DNA of 64,000 nt from GCF_053078305.1 NZ_CP166879.1, one strand, 5' to 3'. Positions 3,078 to 18,094 are shown, numbered from the stretch's first letter. Notes: a model not told the origin generated them from the letters alone. Numbers and translations: made by a program.

Positions 3078-5597
3078 TTAAAAATCAGCCTGATTCGGGA
3101 ACAGTTTTTGCCAGATAACTGAAACGTATTTTGCCTGGTAACGCGCATCGTGCAGGGCATTATGGCGTTCACCCTCAAATGTGATGACGTTGCGGGCATC
3201 GAAATCCATCACCAGTCCCAGGGCAACAATCGTTCTTACATCACGATCGTTGTAGTGACGCCACGGGCAGGGGATTTCTTGTCGTTTATATGAACGGCTT
3301 AAAATTACGTTGTCGAAGTTGGCTCCATTTCCCCAGACCTGAACAAAAAACTCACCGGAGTTTTCGTCTATAAATTCCCGTAATTGTAAAAGCGCATCAT
3401 CAAGCGGTATTCGATCAGCTAAAATGGCGGCACGGGCTTCGCCAGAGCGTTGAAGCCACCATTCGATGGTGCTTATGTCTACAGTGCCACCACATGTATC
3501 CATATCAATTATTTTGCTGAATTCTGGCCCCAGTTCTCCGGTTTGCGGATCGAAAAAGACTGCGCCTATTGAGGCTATTGGTGCGTCAGGATTTTTGCCC
3601 ATCGTTTCAAGGTCAATCATCAGGTGATCCCACATTCTGCTGGTGGATGTGCTTTCACGATGACCGTTCACCTTAATTAAGGGATTTGCTGTCTCGCCTG
3701 TTTCATTATTGCCATTGGCATGTTGATCGCCTTCGGTGCACTCCTTGTTCGGGTGTCCGGCACTTTCCATTTCCTCCAGATCTTTTTCCCGGGCTTCATC
3801 CTGGCTTTCTTCGTTGAATGTCTCCTGGTATGTTGCGTCGCCCATCACCGCGCCACAGTCAGGACAGTTGCCGCCACCGCTCTGACCGCAGGCGGTGCAG
3901 ACTTTTTCCTCTTCCTGTTGCGCTACTGGTTCGGATTGTTTCGTTTCTGGCTCGTCTTGTAACGCATTTTGGCTGTTTTGTTCTGCTTTCTGGTCGTTCT
4001 GTTCCGTTTCTTGCTGGTTCTGGTTCACAGAATCGCAGGTTTCAATCCCCTTAACCCATTTCGAATCATTCGGGTCGCTAATCCCTTCAACAAACTCACC
4101 ACGGGAAGCGGCAAGCAATTTGTCGGCATCTGGTCGACTGATGTCTGCTGCCTCCATAATTTTATTTACTTCTTCAGCAGTAACTTTTACCTGTGACTTG
4201 TCATCCAGCGGCTGCGGGTCCTGATGATGTTCAACTGTATCCGCTGCCATTGTTTCAGCCGTTGCCTGTTCATCTGCCATTGCGCCAGATGGCTGCGGTT
4301 TTTCTTCATCATCCTGTTTTCCTTCTTTTGTTACACGCTGAGGGATAGGGGCAGAGGAGCGACCGCAGGCAATATCCACGATTTCCGGATCAGGGTTGGC
4401 ATGATCGGTTTCGGTCAGTACTTTGTTCAGATATTCGGTAACACGGTGGGGAGTAGCCTCGATACCAATTGGTGCTTCTTTCACGGACGCAACTACTATC
4501 GCGCGGGAATAATCCAGGTGACCAGGCATGGCGATGAATTTGTCACGAAAAACAGAAAAGGGCGGCTTATTCTCTGAAACGATTTCTTCAATGCGTTTGG
4601 CGTGTGCCGGATGTGGATTGTAAATATCGATGTCCATTGAACGGGCCAGAACGCCAGCGGCAACGTCACGTTCCACTGACGCATCATCGTGGACAAAACC
4701 TTCACCGCGATCGGTAAGAATTCCTCCGCCAGCATTAGCGCCGGACGGGGTGCGATTGATTTCAGATACGCAATTTCCCTTTGCCCACTCTTTTGTCAAC
4801 AGCCCCTGATCAAGGTAGTCAGTCTTCATCCAGGTGGAAATGAACTTGTCGAATTCTGCCGGGCTGATACGGCGTGTTGTTGCGTGAGTGAATGCCTTTT
4901 CCACCGAATGCGCCAGTCTTCCAAGATGATGGTTTGTCAGCTTATCCAGCTCAGGATGCGAACGTACTGCAGTAAGCAGGCTCTGTATGTTTCCATCTTC
5001 CATATCCATTTCGATGCGGATCACGTCCTTGCGTTGTTCTGGTGTGGCGTGATGTTTGTATTTCTCGTCGAACTCCTGACCAAAGAAGTAGAGGTGCAGG
5101 AAGCGATGGGTAAGACTCAGGGTGGAGACGGGGATTTCACATTCAGGGCAGTCATCGTTGCTGTCCGGGGATTCGCTTTTATCTGCGTTCTCTGTCTGAG
5201 AGTCACTTTGTTCATCGCAGTCACGGCTGACACCTGTAACAGCTTCGCCGCTGGTATTGTCAGTGCTGGCAGGTTTGTCCTGAGCTGAAGGGGAAGGAGC
5301 TATAAATATCATTGTGATACCATCTTCCCCGCCTTTTTCGTAACGGTTGCAGAATTCAGTATCAAACACGCCTTCTGGAGGAAGGTCATTCACAACGGGT
5401 AAATGGACGCGAACAGGTTTTTTAAAGTCGTCCTCGTCATAATCATTATCATCCATTGCGGTAATGCAGCGGGAGATGGCAACAGATAATTTTTTTGCTG
5501 TAGTCCAGTAAAAACCACCTTTAATCCCAAGGCGTTTTCTGACCTTGTCATTTTTTGCTTCGCAATATAGTGCAAAAGTTTCTTTATCAGTGCTCAT
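3078..5597 (-). CDS. Large phage exonuclease with C-terminal DnaQ-like 3'-5' exonuclease domain
   Basis: 839 aa; C-terminus MIDLETMG...FDNVIL...HNALHDARY (DEDDh-like); acidic low-complexity linker and a Cys4 motif CTACG..CPDCG. Confidence 0.6.
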   Translation of the reverse strand: MSTDKETFALYCEAKNDKVRKRLGIKGGFYWTTAKKLSVAISRCITAMDDNDYDEDDFKKPVRVHLPVVNDLPPEGVFDTEFCNRYEKGGEDGITMIFIAPSPSAQDKPASTDNTSGEAVTGVSRDCDEQSDSQTENADKSESPDSNDDCPECEIPVSTLSLTHRFLHLYFFGQEFDEKYKHHATPEQRKDVIRIEMDMEDGNIQSLLTAVRSHPELDKLTNHHLGRLAHSVEKAFTHATTRRISPAEFDKFISTWMKTDYLDQGLLTKEWAKGNCVSEINRTPSGANAGGGILTDRGEGFVHDDASVERDVAAGVLARSMDIDIYNPHPAHAKRIEEIVSENKPPFSVFRDKFIAMPGHLDYSRAIVVASVKEAPIGIEATPHRVTEYLNKVLTETDHANPDPEIVDIACGRSSAPIPQRVTKEGKQDDEEKPQPSGAMADEQATAETMAADTVEHHQDPQPLDDKSQVKVTAEEVNKIMEAADISRPDADKLLAASRGEFVEGISDPNDSKWVKGIETCDSVNQNQQETEQNDQKAEQNSQNALQDEPETKQSEPVAQQEEEKVCTACGQSGGGNCPDCGAVMGDATYQETFNEESQDEAREKDLEEMESAGHPNKECTEGDQHANGNNETGETANPLIKVNGHRESTSTSRMWDHLMIDLETMGKNPDAPIASIGAVFFDPQTGELGPEFSKIIDMDTCGGTVDISTIEWWLQRSGEARAAILADRIPLDDALLQLREFIDENSGEFFVQVWGNGANFDNVILSRSYKRQEIPCPWRHYNDRDVRTIVALGLVMDFDARNVITFEGERHNALHDARYQAKYVSVIWQKLFPNQADF

Positions 5598-7771: not shown

Positions 7772-8179
7772 TTATTGATGTTTGTTACGTTTGCGAGCTT
7801 CTAGTAGCTCGGTGAATAGGCGATTAAAATTCTCAACGCGGGCACGGAGTTCGCTGATCTGTGCTTGCTGCTCTGATTTTGGAAGTGCGCGATACAATCG
7901 CAACATCTCCAACTCATCTTCCGATAAGTCTAAGGCGCTGTTGAGTGCAACTGGTGGATCTGGTGTTTTATCCTCGTCACCAAACAGTATCCAAGTTGGT
8001 GAACATTGCAATACCTCAGCTAGGCGATGCAAATTTTGCCCGCGCGGGGCTGTATGGTCGCTTTCCCATAGTGAAATTGATGAGCCAGATACGCCAGCAG
8101 CTTTGCTTAAATCGTTTTGACTTAAACCAACCTGTTTGCGTCTTTCTCTAATTCGTTGACCTAAAGTTTTCTCGTTCAT
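7772..8179 (-). CDS. dicA: DicA-like HTH (XRE) repressor
   Basis: 135 aa, N-terminal HTH, ...LQCSPTWILFGDEDK... as in DicA. Confidence 0.8.
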   Translation of the reverse strand: MNEKTLGQRIRERRKQVGLSQNDLSKAAGVSGSSISLWESDHTAPRGQNLHRLAEVLQCSPTWILFGDEDKTPDPPVALNSALDLSEDELEMLRLYRALPKSEQQAQISELRARVENFNRLFTELLEARKRNKHQ

Positions 8180-8484: not shown

Positions 8485-8989
8485 ACAGGTTTGCGAGGCT
8501 CTGGATGCCTGGGTATGCAGACCAGGAATGACACAGGAGCAGGCGACGATATTAATCACCGAAGCATTCTGGGATCTGAAAGAGCGCCCGAACATCGATG
8601 TTCAGCGTGTCACGTTTGATGATGGCGCGGTTGATCAACGGGCGCTTGGCGTTAACCGGGTGAAGATATTCGAACGCTGGAAGGCTATCGACACCAGGGA
8701 TAAGCGTGAAAAATTCACGGCGCTGATTCCGGCAATTATGGAGGCTATCCGGATTAGTGATTTCAGGTTGTACCGCGAAATTACTGACGGAAAAAGCATT
8801 ACGTACATGATTGCCGGGTTAAACAAAGAATATGGCGATGTGGTGGAGTCCGGGCTGCTTTTTGCAGATCCAGCTGTTGTGGAACGTGAGACAGACGAGC
8901 TTATAGAAAAAGCAATCGCTTTCAAGCGTGCCTATCGTCACCAGTACCAACAAAAAGCCGGATGGAATTATGAGCCTTCTTTTTGCTGA
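8468..8989 (+). CDS. YdaT-like (CII-like) regulatory protein
   Basis: 173 aa directly after Cro-like gene; resemblance to YdaT is from memory. Confidence 0.4.
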   Translation: MKITPEQVCEALDAWVCRPGMTQEQATILITEAFWDLKERPNIDVQRVTFDDGAVDQRALGVNRVKIFERWKAIDTRDKREKFTALIPAIMEAIRISDFRLYREITDGKSITYMIAGLNKEYGDVVESGLLFADPAVVERETDELIEKAIAFKRAYRHQYQQKAGWNYEPSFC

Positions 8990-9935
8990 ACGCCCGCTGG
9001 TTATAAACACACAGCTGGCGATGAAGATTGGTTTAAACGAAGCCATTGTGTTGCAGCAACTGCATTACTGGTTAAGGGATACCAGTTCCGGCATGGAATG
9101 TGATGGCGTTCGCTGGATTTACAACACAACGGAACAATGGCTGGAACAGTTTCCGTTCTGGTCAGAGTCAACGTTAAAGCGTGCGTTTGCAAGTCTGAAA
9201 GCGCTGGGGCTTTTGCGTAGCGAAAAGCTCAATAAATCGAAGCGTGATATGACTAATTTTTACACAATTAACTACGATAGCGCGCTTTTAGATGATGGCA
9301 AAGTGAACGAATCCATCGGGGCAAAATGCGCCACTCCATCAGGTCAAAATGACACGATGGAAGAGGTCAAAATGAAACGTTCCATTGGTTCAAAACGGCC
9401 CAATGTCATCAGGTCAAAATGGCCCGATGATCCTACAGAGAATACAACAGAGAATACAACAGAGAATAAAAAACTCTCTTGTCCGGACGCTTCGCAACCG
9501 GACGAGTTGACGGCTGAACAGGCGTTTTTAACCCGCCATCCTGATGCAGTTGTGTTCAGCGTGAAAAAACGCCAGTGGGGAACCCGGGAGGATTTGACAT
9601 GTGCGCAGTGGATCTGGGGGCGGGTTGTAAACCTGTACGAACAGGCTGCCAGTGACGATGGTGAGATCACGCGACCGAAAGAGCCCAACTGGACGGCGTG
9701 GGCCAATGACGTGCGCACAATGCGGATGCTGGATGGAAGAAGTCACAGACAAATTTGCGAAATGTTCAGTCGGGCACAACGGGATCCGTTCTGGATAAAA
9801 AACATCAAGAGCCCGGAAAAACTCCGTGAGAAATGGGATGAACTGGTTATTCGACTGTGGCGTGGTCCCGCGCAGCGTTGCGTGAATCATATTTCTGAAC
9901 CGGATACCGAAATTCCGCCGGGTTTCAGGGGGTAG
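8970..9935 (+). CDS. Replication initiator (O-like / replisome organiser)
   Basis: Precedes DnaC-like gene; internal 15-bp tandem repeats typical of ori inside O; start may be 8928. Confidence 0.6.
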   Translation: MSLLFAERPLVINTQLAMKIGLNEAIVLQQLHYWLRDTSSGMECDGVRWIYNTTEQWLEQFPFWSESTLKRAFASLKALGLLRSEKLNKSKRDMTNFYTINYDSALLDDGKVNESIGAKCATPSGQNDTMEEVKMKRSIGSKRPNVIRSKWPDDPTENTTENTTENKKLSCPDASQPDELTAEQAFLTRHPDAVVFSVKKRQWGTREDLTCAQWIWGRVVNLYEQAASDDGEITRPKEPNWTAWANDVRTMRMLDGRSHRQICEMFSRAQRDPFWIKNIKSPEKLREKWDELVIRLWRGPAQRCVNHISEPDTEIPPGFRG

Positions 9936-9941
9936 CGCACC

Positions 9942-10682
9942 ATGAAAAACATTACGTCAGGTGGTGTTCTGGCAAGAGTCAGCAGATTTGTGCCGCAGGA
10001 TGCAATCCCTCCGTACCGTACGGTGGCGGAGTGGCGGGAATGGCAGCTTGCTGAAGGGCGTAAGCGAAGCGAGGAGGTTAATCGTCTGAATCATCAGACG
10101 CGGGTTGAAAAAATCATTAACCGCTCCGGTATCCAGCTGCTTCACCGGAAGTGTACGTTCGGTAACTACCGGGTGCAGAACGATGGTCAGCGCCATGCCC
10201 TGAGTCAGGCGAAATCCATTGTGGCAGAGCTGGAAGGCGGCTGTACGAATTTTGTTTTCAGTGGCAGGCCTGGCACAGGAAAAAACCACCTGGCGGCGGC
10301 TATTGGCAACCACCTTCTGGCGAAAGGTCGCAGTGTGATTGTGATAACAGTGGCGGATGTGATGCTGGCGTTACATGGCAGCTACGACAACAAAAACTCG
10401 GGCGAAAAATTTTTGCAGGGATTGTGTGGCGTTGACCTGCTGGTACTGGATGAAATTGGCATGCAACGGGATACGCGTAATGAGCAGGTCACGCTTAATC
10501 AGATTGTTGACCGCAGAACGGCATCGTTACTCAGTGTGGGGATGCTGACAAATCTTAATCATGCAGCGATGAATACACTTCTCGGCGAGCGGGTAATGGA
10601 CCGCATGTCCATGAACGGTGGTCGCTGGGTGACTTTTAACTGGGAGAGCTGGCGTCCGAACGTCAGCCAGCACAGGAACTGA
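9942..10682 (+). CDS. DnaC-like helicase loader (P-like, IstB-type ATPase)
   Basis: Walker [16 protein letters not shown] and LLVLDEIG box. Confidence 0.8.
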
Positions 10683-10711
10683 GAAGTAATTTTTATCCGG
10701 AGGAAATTTTA

Positions 10712-11473
10712 ATGGAAACCGTATTGCATGCACTGAAAGCGATGGGTAAAGCCAATTCTGTTGAACTGGCGGCGCGGCTTGATATCAGCCGTGAAGAAGT
10801 TCTCAACGAACTGTGGGAACTCAAAAAAAATGGCGTTGTTGATAAAACGGGTCACACCTGGTTTCTGGCTGGTGAAGGTGAATCCGGGGTAACCGAAGAG
10901 CAGCCAGCACAGTCTGAAGTACCGGATGTGCTGACCGGGGAGGTCGAACAAAAAGTTACCGCGGACATGATGATTGAGTTTATCTGTCAGGATGGGGCTA
11001 AAACGTGTGAGGAACTGGCGGATAAGTTCGGTGTTAGCATTCGCAAGGTTGCTTCCACGTTGGCGGTCGTAACAGCAACGGGGCGCCTGGCACGCGTAAA
11101 TCAGAACGGTAAATTTCGTTACTGCATACCGGGCGCTGATTTACCGGCAGAGCCGGAAGCTGCATCCGTAGCGGAAACCGATGGTAAAGCCTTTCCTCAG
11201 CCAGCAGGTGTTGCGTTACCAGTCCGGGAAGCTGCAACACAGGAAGAAATAAAAACGGAAAGTGTGGCGGTCACAGTGCAGTCACAGCCGTCGTTCACCA
11301 GAAAGCATCCGGATGGTCTGATTTTACCATCGCTGCATGTGGCTAACCGCGAGCTGCGCCGGGCAAAAGGTCAGGTTCAGAAGTGGGAGCGAGTCTGCGC
11401 CGCGCTGCGGGAGCTGAACAAGTGCCGGGATATTCTCCGGGATATTACCGCCACCAGAGAACACCAGCGGTGA
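10712..11473 (+). CDS. Hypothetical phage protein
   Basis: 253 aa ORF with RBS, codon usage consistent with neighbours. Confidence 0.5.
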
Positions 11474-11532
11474 GTGGGTGGAAGACGTGGTGCCGGGCTG
11501 AAATTCTGATACTCCGGCAGTGCGCGGGAACA

Positions 11533-11787
11533 ATGAAGGTAAAAAGCATTGGCGCACTTATCGGACGAACTGAAGCGGCAGTGAGAACGAAGGCACGGGA
11601 GTTGGGCATCAGCATGATGTTACGTGGTGATTTTCACCCGTCGGCAAAATATTCACAACGTGATATTGAGCTGGCGCGGCAACTGCATCAGCGCGGTGTA
11701 CCCCGACGGGAAATTGCCGAAAAGTTCGGAATGAAGTTGCGCACAGTGAATAACTACGTTTATTTCGACAGGAGGGTTCAGGCGTGA
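11533..11787 (+). CDS. Small HTH-domain protein
   Basis: Start uncertain (ATG 11533 or upstream GTG). Confidence 0.4.
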   Translation: MKVKSIGALIGRTEAAVRTKARELGISMMLRGDFHPSAKYSQRDIELARQLHQRGVPRREIAEKFGMKLRTVNNYVYFDRRVQA

Positions 11788-12080
11788 GGGTGAGAATTTA
11801 TATCGCCGGTCCGATGACGGGATATGAAAATTTCAACCGCGAGGCGTTTCACAGGGCGGAAGAAGCACTGAAACGGGAAGGGCATACCGTTTTAAACCCG
11901 GCAGTACTTCCGGACGGGCTGACTCAGCCGCAGTACATGGATATTTGCATGGCAATGATTCGTTGTGTGGATGCGGTTTATATGCTGAAAGGCTGGCAGC
12001 GGTCGGCAGGCGCTAAGGCAGAGCTGGCACTGGCGGAGAAACTGGGGCATGCGGTGATTTATCAGGAGGTGGCTCAATGA
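11784..12080 (+). CDS. DUF4406 / nucleoside 2-deoxyribosyltransferase-like protein
   Basis: 98 aa, N-terminal RIYIAGPMTG motif. Confidence 0.55.
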   Translation: MRVRIYIAGPMTGYENFNREAFHRAEEALKREGHTVLNPAVLPDGLTQPQYMDICMAMIRCVDAVYMLKGWQRSAGAKAELALAEKLGHAVIYQEVAQ

Positions 12081-12538
12081 GAGAGGTTAACTATGAGGCG
12101 CTTCGTGAGGCAGCACAAAACTATCAGTCGACGCTGGCGTGGTATCAGGCTATCCCGGACAGCCCAAATGCTGAACGGGATTGTGATGCGGCTCTTGCTG
12201 CGTTTAAGCGTCACATCCGTCATCGGGAAGCGGATATTATCGCTGATTTGCTGGATGGACTGGAAGAAGCAAAATCACAACTCAACGAGCAACGTGAGTA
12301 TTACGAAGGTGTTATCTCGGATGGGAGTAAGCGCATTGCTGAACTGGAAGCGCGGGAAGTTCAATTACCGACTCGCTACGACCTTCGATATGGACACCCG
12401 ATAAATGCAGATGAGCGACAAGTCATGATACCTAAAGAAAATGGCAGTTGGCTTTACCTGATTGACCTAGAACACGCATTACGCGTCGCTGGCATTCGCA
12501 TCAAAGGAGAGGAGCATGGAAATAAAACCAGAGGATGA
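12077..12538 (+). CDS. Hypothetical phage protein
   Basis: 153 aa, start overlaps previous stop. Confidence 0.45.
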   Translation: MREVNYEALREAAQNYQSTLAWYQAIPDSPNAERDCDAALAAFKRHIRHREADIIADLLDGLEEAKSQLNEQREYYEGVISDGSKRIAELEAREVQLPTRYDLRYGHPINADERQVMIPKENGSWLYLIDLEHALRVAGIRIKGEEHGNKTRG

Positions 12539-12872
12539 GTTAAGCAATATCGTTTTATTTCCGGTAAAAGAGGATGACCCTCGTAATCAGGTTAATTTTC
12601 TTTATGAGCCATCGGAAAGACCATATTGTCATCACGCCTCTGTTCGGGTTGACGAAAAAGAGCGTCAGGTCCGCTGTAAAATCTGCGGTGCAGTTGTGGA
12701 GCCGTTTGACTGGATGCTCTCTGTGGCGAAAAGAGAAACCAGACTGGCAGATGATGTAAGGCTATTGCACCAGGAGGAACAGGAAAGGCGGAAAAATATA
12801 GAAAAGTTAATTCAGATTGAGCGTAACGCGAAAGCGCGGATACGCAGGGCGACAAAATCCAGAACTGAATAA
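12516..12872 (+). CDS. Hypothetical protein with Cys/His zinc-ribbon-like motif
   Basis: 118 aa; CHH...CKICG. Confidence 0.45.
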   Translation: MEIKPEDELSNIVLFPVKEDDPRNQVNFLYEPSERPYCHHASVRVDEKERQVRCKICGAVVEPFDWMLSVAKRETRLADDVRLLHQEEQERRKNIEKLIQIERNAKARIRRATKSRTE

Positions 12873-12922
12873 ATAAATTTAGCGCTGTAAATAAAATCTA
12901 ATCCTTAACTGGAGGTATATTT

Positions 12923-13135
12923 ATGTTAAATACACAGAAATCCATTAATGCGGAAAAATATAACGAGTGGGCAAGAAAATTCTCTGAGCAGATTTTTAAA
13001 ATTACTGGCGATGAGAATGCGGCAAAAAATGAATTAGAACCGTGGACGCCTGAAGGAGCCGACCCAAATTATTGCTGGAGGGAGGTTGATCCAGTTGATG
13101 CTGCAAATGAAGCTATGAGTTATCACAACGATTAA
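12923..13135 (+). CDS. Hypothetical protein
   Basis: 70 aa, GGAGG RBS. Confidence 0.35.
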   Translation: MLNTQKSINAEKYNEWARKFSEQIFKITGDENAAKNELEPWTPEGADPNYCWREVDPVDAANEAMSYHND

Positions 13136-13167: not shown

Positions 13168-13386
13168 ATGGTCACATTATTTAGAAAAAAATATCCGCGA
13201 AAGAGTAGAACAACAGAATTTCTGTTTCTCATTCTGTTTATCGTGTTGATGATACCGATATCCCCGTTAATCCTAGTCTGGATAATCGGAAAAATAATTG
13301 AGCCAGTTATTGAATTGTATAACGACGTGGTATGGGCGTCATTCAACACACTGCACAATAAAATTAATCCGTATAAGGAAAGCTGA
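13168..13386 (+). CDS. Small membrane protein
   Basis: 72 aa with hydrophobic core. Confidence 0.3.
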   Translation: MVTLFRKKYPRKSRTTEFLFLILFIVLMIPISPLILVWIIGKIIEPVIELYNDVVWASFNTLHNKINPYKES

Positions 13387-13387
13387 T

Positions 13388-13753
13388 ATGGCACTGACGA
13401 AAAAACAACGCGCAGAACTGCGCATGAAGTTCGGTGGTCGCTGTGCTTATTGCGGCTGCGAACTTGGCGAAAAGTGGCATGCAGACCATGTAAAACCGGT
13501 CATTCGTTTTGATGGAAATATGCTTCACCAGGAACGTGACGATATATCCAACATGGTTCCGGCATGCCACCCATGCAATCTGCACAAGCATTGCAGTAGT
13601 CTGGAAGATTATCGGCGAATTATCAGTGATGGTCGTCGTGAATTCCTTGCGTCCGGGAAAGGCAAAGCGCTGGTTCGTATGGGATTGGTTGAAATGAAAT
13701 CTGACCCGGTTGTGTTCTGGTTTGAAAAATATCAAGAAGGGGCTACGGCATGA
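13388..13753 (+). CDS. HNH endonuclease
   Basis: CAYCG...HADHVKP...CHPCNLHK; AAGGAAAG RBS. Confidence 0.7.
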
Positions 13754-14643: not shown

Positions 14644-14961
14644 TCAGGATATTACCTGGATCCCGTTTTTCTCGACAACTGAAAGAAGCCGAAGAGCTGC
14701 ACCTCCCGGGCGTTTCACTCCTCGTTCCCAGTCTGATATCAGGTTTTTACTGACGTTGAGGTATCTGGCAAAAACAGGTTGAGACAGATGCTCTCGTTCT
14801 CGCAGTGCACGGATCCTTTCTGGAGACATTACCGGCGCAGGCTGAAGACAAGTTTCATCGAATTCGCGCATAGTTTGTTTTGTGATTGCACCGATATCAT
14901 GGAGTGACTCCATCATTTCATGTACAGATGCAAGTGCATCACTGCGGTAATTTTTACTCAT
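14644..14961 (-). CDS. HTH (XRE-type) antitoxin of type II TA pair
   Basis: 105 aa, C-terminal HTH; overlaps upstream toxin gene by 8 nt. Confidence 0.65.
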   Translation of the reverse strand: MSKNYRSDALASVHEMMESLHDIGAITKQTMREFDETCLQPAPVMSPERIRALREREHLSQPVFARYLNVSKNLISDWERGVKRPGGAALRLLSVVEKNGIQVIS

Positions 14962-15325
14962 TGGGTACCTCCGTGAACTGGCCTTGTTGAATCAATTGTG
15001 CCAGCTGTTCATCAGTAAGATTGAGGACATGGGGAGCGGCTTTTCGAAAAGCATTTTCCTCTATAGCAGTGATATTCTCTCGTTCATTCTTTGCGTATGC
15101 GTAGATGAAAAAGGCTTTTTCTGCAACGCGGTAAAAAATTATTGTCCGGTAACCGCCTGATTTTCCGCCACCACTTCGGGCTAATCTTTGTTTAATGACA
15201 CCACTACCCAAATTTGCGGATATGATCCCCTTATCGGCCAGCTCCACGATTTTGCGCAGCGATTTATCGGAAATCCGATGTTTTCGGGCGAAACGTTCAA
15301 ACCAGGCGTTTTTGAAAATTCGCAT
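14954..15325 (-). CDS. RelE/ParE-superfamily toxin (HigB-like)
   Basis: 123 aa; ...GGYRTIIFYR...FIYAYAKNEREN...; toxin-first gene order. Confidence 0.65.
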   Translation of the reverse strand: MRIFKNAWFERFARKHRISDKSLRKIVELADKGIISANLGSGVIKQRLARSGGGKSGGYRTIIFYRVAEKAFFIYAYAKNERENITAIEENAFRKAAPHVLNLTDEQLAQLIQQGQFTEVPNE

Positions 15326-16103: not shown

Positions 16104-17153
16104 GTGCGGGTATTACTTCGACCTGTTCTGGTACCGGAACTCGGGATGGTGCTCCTAAAGCCGGGCCGTGAATCAATGTCAGCATTCCATAACGGCAGAA
16201 TATTGGTGGAGCCGGAACCGAAAAACATGCGCGGTCTGCCGTCCGGAGTCGTTCCTGCCGTTCGACAGCCGCTGGCAGAGGATAAAACATTACTGCCATT
16301 TTTCAGCAACGAACGGGTGATTCGTGCTGCGGGTGGCGCTGGTGCACTGTCTGACTGGTTATTACGTCACGTGAAATCCTGCCAGTGGCCACACGGTGAT
16401 TATCATCACAGCGAAACTGTCATTCACCGTTACGGTACCGGCGCGATGGTGTTGTGCTGGCACTGCGACAACCAGCTGCGCGACCAGACATCAGAATCAC
16501 TCGATCAACTTGCTCAGCAGAATCTGGTTGCCTGGATGATTGACGTTATCCGTCACGCAATAAGCAGTACGCAGGAGAGGGAGTTATCGCTGGCCGAATT
16601 ATCCTGGTGGGCGGCCTGCAATCAGGTGGTGGATGCACTACCTGAGGCAGTAGCGCGTCGTTCGCTGGGATTACCAGCGGAAAAAATCCGCTCCGTATAC
16701 CGTGAGAGTGACATCGTACCGGGAGAACAGACAGCCATCAGCATACTGAAGCAGCGCACAAAAAATATTGCGCTGCCACTTCACGTCCACCAGCAACAAA
16801 ATCCACCACAGAAAAAAACGGTTGTCAGTATCGCCGTTGATCCGGAGTCTCCTGAATCGTTCATGAGGCGGCCTAAACGTCGCCGTTGGGTTAATGAGAA
16901 ATACACGCGCTGGGTAAAGACACAGCCGTGTGCGTGTTGTGGTAAGCCTGCTGACGATCCGCATCACCTGATTGGTCATGGTCAGGGGGGAATGGGGACA
17001 AAGGCCCACGATATTTTCACGCTACCGTTGTGCCGGGAGCACCACAACGAACTTCATGCAGACCCGCTGGAGTTTGAGAAAAAGTACGGCTCTCAGATTG
17101 AGTTAATTTTTCGTTTTCTTGATCACGCCTTTGCGACTGGCGTGCTCGGGTAA
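16104..17153 (+). CDS. DUF968-like phage protein with C-terminal HNH-like Cys/His cluster
   Basis: C-terminus CACCGKP..DPHH...LCREHHNELH. Confidence 0.6.
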   Translation: MRVLLRPVLVPELGMVLLKPGRESMSAFHNGRILVEPEPKNMRGLPSGVVPAVRQPLAEDKTLLPFFSNERVIRAAGGAGALSDWLLRHVKSCQWPHGDYHHSETVIHRYGTGAMVLCWHCDNQLRDQTSESLDQLAQQNLVAWMIDVIRHAISSTQERELSLAELSWWAACNQVVDALPEAVARRSLGLPAEKIRSVYRESDIVPGEQTAISILKQRTKNIALPLHVHQQQNPPQKKTVVSIAVDPESPESFMRRPKRRRWVNEKYTRWVKTQPCACCGKPADDPHHLIGHGQGGMGTKAHDIFTLPLCREHHNELHADPLEFEKKYGSQIELIFRFLDHAFATGVLG

Positions 17154-17165
17154 AAGAGGTGACTG

Positions 17166-17525
17166 ATGCTCATAGATTTGGTTTTACCTTACCCGCCGAC
17201 GGTGAACACTTACTGGCGACGCCGTGGCAGCACATATTTTGTATCAAAAGCAGGGGAGCGTTATCGCCGGGCAGTGGCACTTATTGTTCGCCAGCAGCGG
17301 CTGAAATTAAGCCTGTCCGGACGGCTGGCAATAAAAATTATTGCAGAGCCACCGGATAAGCGTCGTCGTGACCTGGACAATATTCTGAAAGCACCGCTGG
17401 ATGCGCTGACGCATGCGGGAGTGCTCATTGATGACGAGCAGTTTGATGAAATCAATATTGTACGTGGTCAGCTTGTTCCTGGTGGTCGGTTGGGTGTGAA
17501 GATTTACAAAATTGAGAGTGAGTGA
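17166..17525 (+). CDS. rusA: RusA Holliday-junction resolvase
   Basis: 119 aa; ...DLDNILKAPLDALTHAGVLIDDEQ... Confidence 0.8.
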   Translation: MLIDLVLPYPPTVNTYWRRRGSTYFVSKAGERYRRAVALIVRQQRLKLSLSGRLAIKIIAEPPDKRRRDLDNILKAPLDALTHAGVLIDDEQFDEINIVRGQLVPGGRLGVKIYKIESE

Positions 17526-18094
17526 GCGTAAATATGATATATCCGGAAATTACAGGCAAAAGCGGCGAACATTTACGCCTGAACACGCTGGAAGCAGTCT
17601 GGATCCAGGGGAAATTACGGATGTGGGGGCGGTGGTCGTATATCGGTGGGGGTAAATCCGGAAATATGTTTAACCGGTTACTGGTTTCGAAGAAGCTGAC
17701 GAAAACAGCAGTTAATGAGGTTTTACGCAGAATGAAGAAATCCGGGCTGGAAAAACCGGAACTTGAGGCATTTTTTCGGGATATGACCAGAGGGAAGCAG
17801 AAGAGCTGGTTGTCACATTGTACAGACACAGAGGCGTTGATTATTGATCGCGTTATCAGTGAGGTGCTTGGGGAATATCCCGGGCTAATCAATATTCTCC
17901 GGCAAAGGTACGAAGGACGGGGAATGAGCAAACTGAAAATGGCCGAAAGGTTAAATGCAGATCATCCTGAGTGGACGTTGGTTACGTGCAGACGCCGAAT
18001 TGATCAGTGGTTGGGGATATCTGAATTTATGTTACATGCCCCCATGCGTATGGCTTTTGTTACAGAGAAAAAAATGTTGCAAACTGATCAATAA
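17522..18094 (+). CDS. Putative late antiterminator Q
   Basis: Position after rusA and before a strong terminator and the late genes; call is positional. Confidence 0.5.
   Translation: MSVNMIYPEITGKSGEHLRLNTLEAVWIQGKLRMWGRWSYIGGGKSGNMFNRLLVSKKLTKTAVNEVLRRMKKSGLEKPELEAFFRDMTRGKQKSWLSHCTDTEALIIDRVISEVLGEYPGLINILRQRYEGRGMSKLKMAERLNADHPEWTLVTCRRRIDQWLGISEFMLHAPMRMAFVTEKKMLQTDQ

Follow-up and report, generated by a model that had tools for sequence, protein, structure and literature searches.

A stripped-down deoxyribosyltransferase-like protein of the DUF4406 family in a lambdoid prophage, with a possible role in editing the nucleotide pool

The closest described relatives of the small phage proteins grouped as DUF4406 are enzymes of the nucleoside 2'-deoxyribosyltransferase (NDT) superfamily, and here we analyze one such protein, encoded at positions 11784..12080 (+) of a 64,000-nucleotide (nt) stretch of NZ_CP166879.1 (GCF_053078305.1; hereafter, the window), which carries a lambdoid prophage. 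Human DNPH1 (Rcl), a 2'-deoxynucleoside 5'-phosphate N-hydrolase and nucleotide pool sanitizer, uses the catalytic triad Y24/D80/E104, and crystal structures show that E104 forms a covalent glycosyl-enzyme intermediate; the phosphate is contacted by S98 together with S128', which the partner subunit contributes through its helical extension (PMC10603095). In the rat enzyme, the phosphate-binding groups are Ser87 and the backbone nitrogens of Ile18, Arg19, Gly20, and Gly89 (PMC3834327). The nearest characterized phage enzyme, although of a different family, is DmtZ of the Z-genome phages (Gordonia phage Ghobes, AOE44404.1), an NDT-superfamily enzyme acting on deoxynucleoside monophosphates (dNMPs) that hydrolyzes dAMP and also transfers deoxyribose-5-phosphate to 2-aminoadenine; the DutZ–DmtZ pair thereby takes dATP to dAMP and then to adenine (Poubanne et al., NAR 2026, PMC12884076). 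According to the same study, the 5'-OH is held by Asp or Asn in NDTs, small uncharged residues in the hydrolases make room for the phosphate, and a certain Pro, conserved throughout the known transferases but lacking from hydrolases, helps to keep water out of the active site (PMC12884076).

The open reading frame (ORF) at 11784..12080 has a GTG start and encodes 98 amino acids (aa), and its coordinates in the ORF listing of the window agree exactly with those of an initial annotation made from the DNA sequence. Its complete translation is MRVRIYIAGPMTGYENFNREAFHRAEEALKREGHTVLNPAVLPDGLTQPQYMDICMAMIRCVDAVYMLKGWQRSAGAKAELALAEKLGHAVIYQEVAQ; the N-terminus reads MRVRIYIAGPMTG, in which RIYIAGPMTG forms residues 4–13. 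The protein matched PF14359 (DUF4406) with an E-value of 4.4e-37 and a score of 126.8 bits (cutoff, 22), residues 4–93 covering positions 2–91 of the 91-column profile, and it matched phrog_355 at E=7.5e-48. The identical protein, found on 21 contigs, is listed by both NCBI and UniRef under the name “DUF4406 domain-containing protein [Escherichia coli]”, so that the family name proposed in the initial annotation is also the one in the databases, and the 90% cluster that holds it has 1,272 members. All parts of the family signature (Y-I-A-G-P-M-T-G; N-P-x-x-L-P-x-G-L; Y51; and G-W-x-x-S-x-G-A-x-x-E) occur in the window protein, and the signature residues are 92–100% conserved among the 251 family members in which conservation was counted. 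It is therefore a typical full-length member that does not differ from the Pfam family, to which no function is assigned; in other words, the protein is already known, a textbook DUF4406 protein whose tie to the NDT superfamily is visible in the weak hits of Pfam itself. A scan of NCBIfam with this protein gave no match.

The gene is preceded by a Shine-Dalgarno-like AGGAGG at 11770..11775 (+), 8 nt 5' of the GTG as read from the sequence. Its start codon overlaps the stop codon of the upstream gene (GTGA at 11784–11787), and its stop codon overlaps the ATG of the downstream gene (ATGA at 12077–12080), an arrangement that appears typical of translational coupling at both ends. Translation may in fact begin at a second in-frame GTG (11790), giving a protein of 96 aa that begins MRIYIAGP... 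and resembles many homologues; PGAP chose the 297-nt form in a copy with 98% identity, which it likewise names a DUF4406 domain-containing protein. Relatives for the analyses of selection and of neighbouring genes were collected with a 20-sequence alignment as query, which yielded close enterobacterial loci only, and against 46 distinct close homologues from IMG/VR loci dN/dS was 0.09–0.27. Taken together, the Pfam score, the phrog_355 match, the 12,381 representatives of 50%-identity clusters that match DUF4406 at E ≤1e-3, the dN/dS values, and the exact NCBI protein indicate that this is a genuine gene under purifying selection, and a chance ORF is rejected.

The AlphaFold2 model of the protein, built from a 79-sequence alignment, had a mean pLDDT of 94.2 and a pTM of 0.87, and consisted of a strand (residues 4–8), a helix (15–31), a strand (35–37), a helix (48–60), a strand (64–67), a helix (75–87), and a final strand (90–93). 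This flavodoxin-like alpha/beta fold matches solved members of the NDT superfamily. When the model was compared with the PDB using Foldseek, Trypanosoma brucei NDT ranked first (E=4.6e-5, TM 0.76), followed by Chroococcidiopsis NDT, MilB, DNPH1, and BcmB; a PDB search with the family profile returned 2A0K (E=1.3e-4) and then 6QAI, BcmB, BlsM, 1T1J, and MilB. A single-sequence search of the PDB gave just chance matches to Mediator subunit 29, and it was the profile search that succeeded instead. The model, Foldseek, and the profile search thus support the initial annotation, which had taken RIYIAGPMTG as pointing to a deoxyribosyltransferase-like fold, and the profile searches led to NDT-type proteins rather than to an unrelated family. 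In the fold comparison table, the values were 12.3 for 1T1J (PA1492, DUF1937), 11.6 for MilB, 10.7–11.2 for the bacterial and kinetoplastid NDTs, 9.1 for Rcl/DNPH1, and about 7.8–10 for TIR, ThsB, and SLOG domains. PA1492 has 125 aa and 18% identity and is also uncharacterized, so it provided no functional information. The solved relatives comprise 125–165 residues, of which about 90–96 align with DUF4406; the DUF4406 domain ends after strand 4 and is without the final helix-strand-helix, that is, the C-terminal third of the fold. On the basis of the model, DUF4406 would be a minimal NDT-superfamily member with a stripped-down deoxyribosyltransferase-type fold.

We then compared the conserved residues of the family with the active sites of the characterized enzymes, using a human DNPH1 query sequence identical to the PDB chains over residues 20–162 apart from engineered point mutations. 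In hhalign, DNPH1 was collinear with the family profile across 90 columns (E 0.063). Tyr6 (codon 11799..11801, +) corresponds to Y24 of DNPH1 and Y6 of DmtZ, the triad Tyr, whose role is described in PMC10603095 and PMC12884076; it lies at the end of strand 1, as in the NDT superfamily, and is Tyr in 231 of the 251 members. The loop after strand 1, G9-P-M-T-G13 (codons 11808..11822, +), corresponds to the DNPH1 phosphate loop G27-S-I-R-G31, whose backbone amides hold the 5'-phosphate, and is strongly conserved (G9, 249/251; G13, 242/251; T or S at position 12, 241/251). Glu80 (codon 12021..12023, +), at the start of the helix after strand 3, is the predicted covalent nucleophile, equivalent to E104 of DNPH1, E103 of DmtZ, and the NDT Glu; it is present in 249 of the 251 members and is aligned with the Glu of 2A0K, 6QAI, and BcmB. 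Six residues before it lies Ser74 (codon 12003..12005, +), which is invariant (251/251) and corresponds to the phosphate ligand S98 of DNPH1 (PMC10603095). In this column, the nucleoside transferases have Asp (2A0K and 6QAI, both ...EPDCGTAFE...), and the nucleotide enzymes have Ser (BcmB, ...SPGTHIE...; DNPH1, ...SLGVGYE...) or Thr (DmtZ, ...TVGVPLE...). A DNPH1-type pocket composed of a Ser and loop amides is thus predicted from S74 and G9–G13. The CMP N-glycosidases MilB, BlsM, and BcmB, proteins of about 160 aa that act on ribonucleotides in antibiotic biosynthesis, gave marginal scores (E 0.09–1.6).

The remaining positions give the site a mixed character. The column of the third triad residue, on which the alignments with DNPH1, T. 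brucei NDT (hmmsearch), and DmtZ (hhalign) agree, is occupied by Cys55 (codon 11946..11948, +), in place of D80 of DNPH1, the Asn of T. brucei NDT, and N77 of DmtZ; among the 251 members it is Cys in 206, Asp in 21, and Thr, Ala, Gly, Ser, or Asn in 24 (Asn in 1). Other highly conserved positions are F22 (251), P39 (247), P43 (246), and Y51 (248). Cys55 or Tyr51, which is nearly invariant, may serve as general acid, or possibly neither does. P39, located after strand 2, aligns with a Pro of T. brucei NDT (hmmsearch) and is placed like P57 of DmtZ, as judged by reading the DmtZ sequence; given this transferase-type Pro, base exchange may also be an outcome. The DUF4406 signature therefore reads as a hybrid: the putative phosphate pocket is of the nucleotide type, the Pro is of the transferase type, and the third triad residue is not Asp. 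DmtZ resembles it in the small uncharged residue in place of the NDT Asp, in the Pro after strand 2, and in a third triad residue other than Asp (Asn), but it belongs to a separate family of 161 aa with five strands and, according to its authors, no Pfam match. We also considered whether DUF4406 is a homologue of DmtZ and rejected this, since the similarity was not significant (hhalign E 0.16, 51 columns) and a PurZ context was absent from the scanned part of the window. DmtZ is tied to PurZ0 and 2-aminoadenine genomes, from which this prophage appears to differ: the ORFs scanned at positions 1–24,000 of the window included no PurA-like or dUTPase match, and ordinary lambdoid genes were found there.

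The best matches in the PDB by sequence and by Foldseek are NDTs (PF05014; T. brucei 2A0K, Leishmania 6QAI, and Lactobacillus 1F8X/1S2D), with the Tyr, Pro, and Glu aligned, and phrog_355 and many phage records carry the corresponding label. The protein could thus be a genuine nucleoside 2'-deoxyribosyltransferase that salvages by base exchange between free deoxynucleosides, and the alignment of P39 with the transferase-conserved Pro also fits this. Nevertheless, the protein scored 17.3 bits against PF05014, under the Pfam gathering cutoff of 28.8; in place of the Asp with which NDTs bind the 5'-OH there is the invariant Ser74; and the C-terminal segment that in NDTs proper reaches the active site of the neighbouring subunit is missing (targets of 135–165 residues, with about 90–96 aligned). 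In lactobacillal NDTs, this segment bears a second 5'-OH ligand (Asn) and the C-terminal carboxylate. Furthermore, the phage annotations of the family contradict one another and are not experimental, plain DUF4406 proteins being variously named nucleoside deoxyribosyltransferase, deoxycytidylate deaminase, MazG-like pyrophosphatase, or hydrolase. We accordingly consider a true NDT unlikely, and the label “nucleoside 2-deoxyribosyltransferase” is probably wrong in detail for DUF4406.

Some of these names imply fusions, which we examined and rejected: Daob gp55 (“deoxycytidylate deaminase”), Reedo gp27 (“MazG-like pyrophosphatase”), and NancyRae gp64 (“hydrolase”) are all plain DUF4406 proteins of 122–128 aa, with DUF4406 as the sole match above threshold and PF05014 below it, and their names are wrong or arbitrary. 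Even the characterized DmtZ of Ghobes is labelled “deoxyuridine triphosphatase” in GenBank (unreliable names of Daob, Reedo, NancyRae, and Ghobes DmtZ, respectively: L004 2468-2845, L005 2504-2872, L006 2501-2887, L007 42692-43177). Domain fusions in longer homologues were likewise discarded, because a Pfam scan of 20 of them (182–358 aa) found no domain besides DUF4406 and their extensions resemble unrelated small phage ORFs or read-through gene calls. Some mycobacteriophage members (DismalFunk gp55, L091 3048-3806) have an N-terminal extension of about 150 residues, without a Pfam match, before DUF4406, and the member from Pseudomonas phage D14E has a C-terminal one of 85 residues.

Our tentative preference, the chances of which we put a little short of even, is that the DUF4406 protein acts as a free-standing (deoxy)nucleoside-5'-monophosphate N-glycosidase or phosphodeoxyribosyl transferase, produced from the early-right operon, that tunes or sanitizes the nucleotide pool. 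The catalysis, 5'-phosphate preference, substrate, and physiological role that we infer would fit together as follows. The protein would be made from the early-right (pR-type) operon during lytic replication of the prophage, and a (deoxy)nucleoside 5'-monophosphate would bind with its phosphate gripped by the G9-x3-G13 loop and Ser74. Glu80, oriented by Tyr6, would attack C1' and expel the base; the resulting intermediate, a covalent Glu80-(deoxy)ribose-5-phosphate, would be resolved either by water, as in a hydrolase, or by another base, as in a phosphodeoxyribosyl transferase. This step would lie downstream of whatever generates the monophosphate, and its role might be to tune the pool or, in the manner of DNPH1, to remove an unwanted nucleotide irreversibly while phage DNA is being synthesized rapidly.

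Several points weigh against this proposal. The residue mapping consists of sequence and profile alignments with weak statistics (hhalign E 0.06–0.16; hmmsearch E 1.3e-4), and the likeness to DNPH1 is not significant by similarity alone. The Asp or Asn expected of the triad as general acid is Cys55 here and Ala, Gly, or Thr in some members, and Tyr6 is replaced by Phe in 20 of the 251 members (8%). By the standards of DNPH1, which has about 145 core residues compared with 98, the predicted phosphate site is incomplete: nothing follows strand 4, so the helix-strand-helix that donates S128' in trans is missing, and N38-P39 stands after strand 2 in place of E55-H56. The conserved N18/R19, or a dimer arranged differently, may make up for the absent extension. 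For a phage in replication, the destruction of dNMPs would also appear to be expensive, except where the substrate is a non-canonical nucleotide. Finally, a literature search for DUF4406 and PF14359 found no paper assaying any family member, and neither the window nor the 80 enterobacterial loci contained a DUF5664 or MazG-like partner, as a result of which the E. coli prophage protein would need host enzymes or existing monophosphates.

The genomic contexts of the family in other phages bear on the source of such monophosphates. By tblastn, the family was found in 534 of 50,697 phage records, from phages of Arthrobacter (135), Vibrio (124), Gordonia (84), Mycobacterium (46), Pseudomonas (33), and other hosts, including N4-like roseophages. 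Most of the sampled contexts place DUF4406 with early or DNA-replication genes; the N4-like roseophage EE36phi1 carries it at the genome end, next to genes for virion proteins. Two structural matches in BFVD (43% and 33% identity; 216 and 462 aa) bear a name derived from PF18909, which suggests a fusion of DUF4406 with PF18909, suspected in A0A6J5LQ71 and A0A6J5S4N9, and because of these names we searched for linkage to PF18909/DUF5664. In DismalFunk, a Mycobacterium phage, the genes gp55 (DUF4406) and gp56 (PF18909, E=2.6e-39) overlap at the start of the latter, and in Wildcat, one small gene separates gp88 (DUF4406) from gp90 (PF18909, E=8.7e-28). The order in Courthouse is gp159 (DUF4406), a 33-aa ORF, a protein resembling the PRA-PH/MazG superfamily (just below threshold, at 21.1 bits against a cutoff of 21.3), an HNH endonuclease, and gp163 (PF18909, E=3.2e-28); that in WXIN is DUF4406, a MazG-annotated gene, and a DUF5664-like gene. 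In Gordonia phage HayZem, a MazG-like pyrophosphohydrolase is encoded 0.9 kb downstream of DUF4406. Thus, PF18909 (dATP/dGTP diphosphohydrolase) and/or MazG-like genes were linked to DUF4406 in 5 of 13 sampled non-enterobacterial contexts, lying next to it or at most about 1.1 kb away in four actinophage lineages, Courthouse and WXIN both being Omegavirus (L091 3048-4435; L094 2989-4314; L093 2974-4973; L097 2992-4366; L095 2980-4716). In the Courthouse cluster, a gene for an HNH homing endonuclease has been inserted between DUF4406 and PF18909.

This linkage to deoxynucleoside triphosphate (dNTP) pyrophosphohydrolases, counted in a small sample without phylogenetic correction, is suggestive. 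The DUF5664 protein of phage Wayne converts dATP, dGTP, and dUTP into monophosphates, and judging from the predicted residues, pyrophosphohydrolases of this kind yield the class of molecule for which the DUF4406 pocket appears to be built. The arrangement would, by analogy, parallel that of DmtZ, which is paired with or fused to a dNTP pyrophosphohydrolase in the DutZ–DmtZ system.

A counter-defence function would also fit the fold, the size, the mosaicism, and the early expression of the gene. In this case, the protein would enzymatically destroy a nucleotide-derived immune signal or a toxic nucleotide analogue, or would serve without catalysis as a binder or decoy for these molecules or for host effectors of the NDT, TIR, or SLOG type. 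The invariance of the phosphate Ser and of the nucleophile Glu favours catalysis on a nucleotide over a sponge, the linked genes encode dNTP pyrophosphohydrolases rather than known anti-defence proteins, and our literature search on phage NDT-like anti-defence proteins found no functional study and no mention of DUF4406 in the anti-defence literature; we regard this explanation as improbable, although it deserves some weight. A broader and similarly doubtful scenario would merge it with our preferred monophosphate N-glycosidase. DUF4406 would then represent a distinct and highly abundant group of minimal N-glycosidases in phages, built around a Tyr-Cys-Glu site and a 5'-phosphate pocket, whose substrate would be non-canonical or defence-derived, for instance dIMP or dXMP arising after attack by host deaminases, ddhNMPs, or some other nucleotide that is toxic or acts as a signal. 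Paired with the dNTP pyrophosphohydrolases, it would constitute a two-step pool-sanitizing or counter-defence pathway, whereas in E. coli prophages it would act alone, with host enzymes performing the first step.

The preferred N-glycosidase or phosphodeoxyribosyl transferase activity matters because DUF4406, with more than 12,000 50%-identity clusters, is among the larger uncharacterized phage families and is named inconsistently; the residue signature and the pyrophosphohydrolase linkage turn its function into a testable hypothesis. If it is true, many annotations would be corrected, and the DNPH1/DmtZ logic of irreversible nucleotide-pool editing would extend to ordinary phages with canonical DNA. 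The sequence itself was already catalogued, and what is new here is a specific functional prediction for the family together with caution about the common NDT label.

DNA methyltransferase genes also occurred near DUF4406, adjoining it in D14E and NancyRae and lying about 2–3 kb away in Daob and HayZem (L090 2056-4028; L006 2501-3597; L004 1-411 and 2468-2845; L095 2980-3345 and 6107-6234). These neighbours, together with the nucleotide modification suggested in the initial annotation, raise the idea that the protein acts on DNA, by removing or exchanging bases at a 5'-phosphorylated end or nick or by aiding DNA modification. We know of no NDT-superfamily member that acts on polymeric DNA. In addition, the single domain of 98 residues has no evident DNA-binding surface or DNA-binding domain, and the adjacency to methyltransferases is inconsistent among the sampled phages, making this the least probable of the explanations that we weighed.

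In the window, the DUF4406 gene lies inside a string of overlapping genes on the same strand, between the replication genes and Q, and appears to be part of a pR-type early-right operon, in keeping with the early-region location given in the initial annotation. On the + strand from 9942 to 13000, we found no sigma-70-like promoter or intrinsic-terminator-like site. Because of this operon position, the protein is presumably expressed in lytic development rather than in the lysogen. The upstream, translationally coupled gene (11506..11787, +) encodes a small helix-turn-helix (HTH) DNA-binding protein (Pfam HTH, phrog_323), and PGAP places a 282-nt “DNA-binding protein” gene at the equivalent position. 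A mechanically called ORF of 134 aa (11383–11787, +) shares 91 nt with the end of the DUF1627 gene; the true upstream gene is probably the one for the 93-aa HTH protein from the ATG at 11506, matching PGAP in E. coli O111 strain 11128. Downstream, the start of an Ead/Ea22-like gene (12077..12538, +; PF13935, E=6.2e-12) overlaps the DUF4406 stop codon. In 77 close relatives, three types of gene were found upstream, in 47, 22, and 4 loci, the HTH gene being present in 22 of the 77, and the downstream gene was Ead/Ea22 in 42, a small membrane protein in 14, and various others in the rest. Because the neighbours change among relatives, the DUF4406 gene is a free-standing mosaic module and not half of a fixed pair, and we rejected a constant pairing with either the HTH gene upstream or the Ead/Ea22 gene downstream.

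These contexts also bear on whether the prophage uses the protein for defence or exclusion, or as a toxin, by depleting the nucleotides of the host or of a superinfecting phage, since nucleotide-depleting NDT-like effectors exist and many E. coli prophages carry the gene. A PADLOC scan of the DUF4406 protein matched no family at E ≤0.01, and the gene has variable neighbours and no sensor or antitoxin partner. Its place in a lytic early operon is not the position of a moron expressed in lysogeny, and homologues occur in N4-like and many other phages, so that we consider such a role very improbable.

The remaining features of the prophage are those of a lambdoid element. On the – strand are an integrase (1447–2721), a RecE-like ORF (3078–5597), and an HTH repressor-type gene (7772–8179); these are followed on the + strand by an O-like replication initiator (8928–9935), a DnaC/IstB-like loader (9942–10682), and DUF1627 (10712–11473). 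The RecE-like ORF (839 aa) combines Exonuc_VIII (RecE-type) at residues 56–195 with an Rv2179c-like 3'-5' exoribonuclease at residues 657–828 (E=2.6e-63). Beyond the Ead/Ea22-like gene are a 118-aa ORF (12516–12872, +; phrog_1621, with a sub-threshold Zn-ribbon match) and an HNH endonuclease (13298–13753, +; PF01844; phrog_2118, E=4e-57). The latter shows weak similarity in PADLOC to the PtuB (Septu) models (best E=3e-8) and is probably an ordinary phage HNH protein. On the opposite strand, within the early-right region, a RelE-family toxin gene (14954–15325, –; PF06296, E=5e-46) is located immediately upstream of an HTH_3 gene (14644–14961), with which it overlaps, and the two form a toxin-first, toxin–antitoxin-like pair (14644–15325, –). 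Further along the + strand are DUF968 (16104–17153), RusA (17166–17525), the Q-type antiterminator (17522–18094), and an N6/N4 DNA methylase (18659–19717). Downstream of the antiterminator and the methylase, a 660-aa ORF (21647–23629, +) contains DUF1737, a SASA sialate-O-acetylesterase domain, and DUF6645, and we take it to resemble the NanS-p-type esterases of Shiga-toxin-type prophages.

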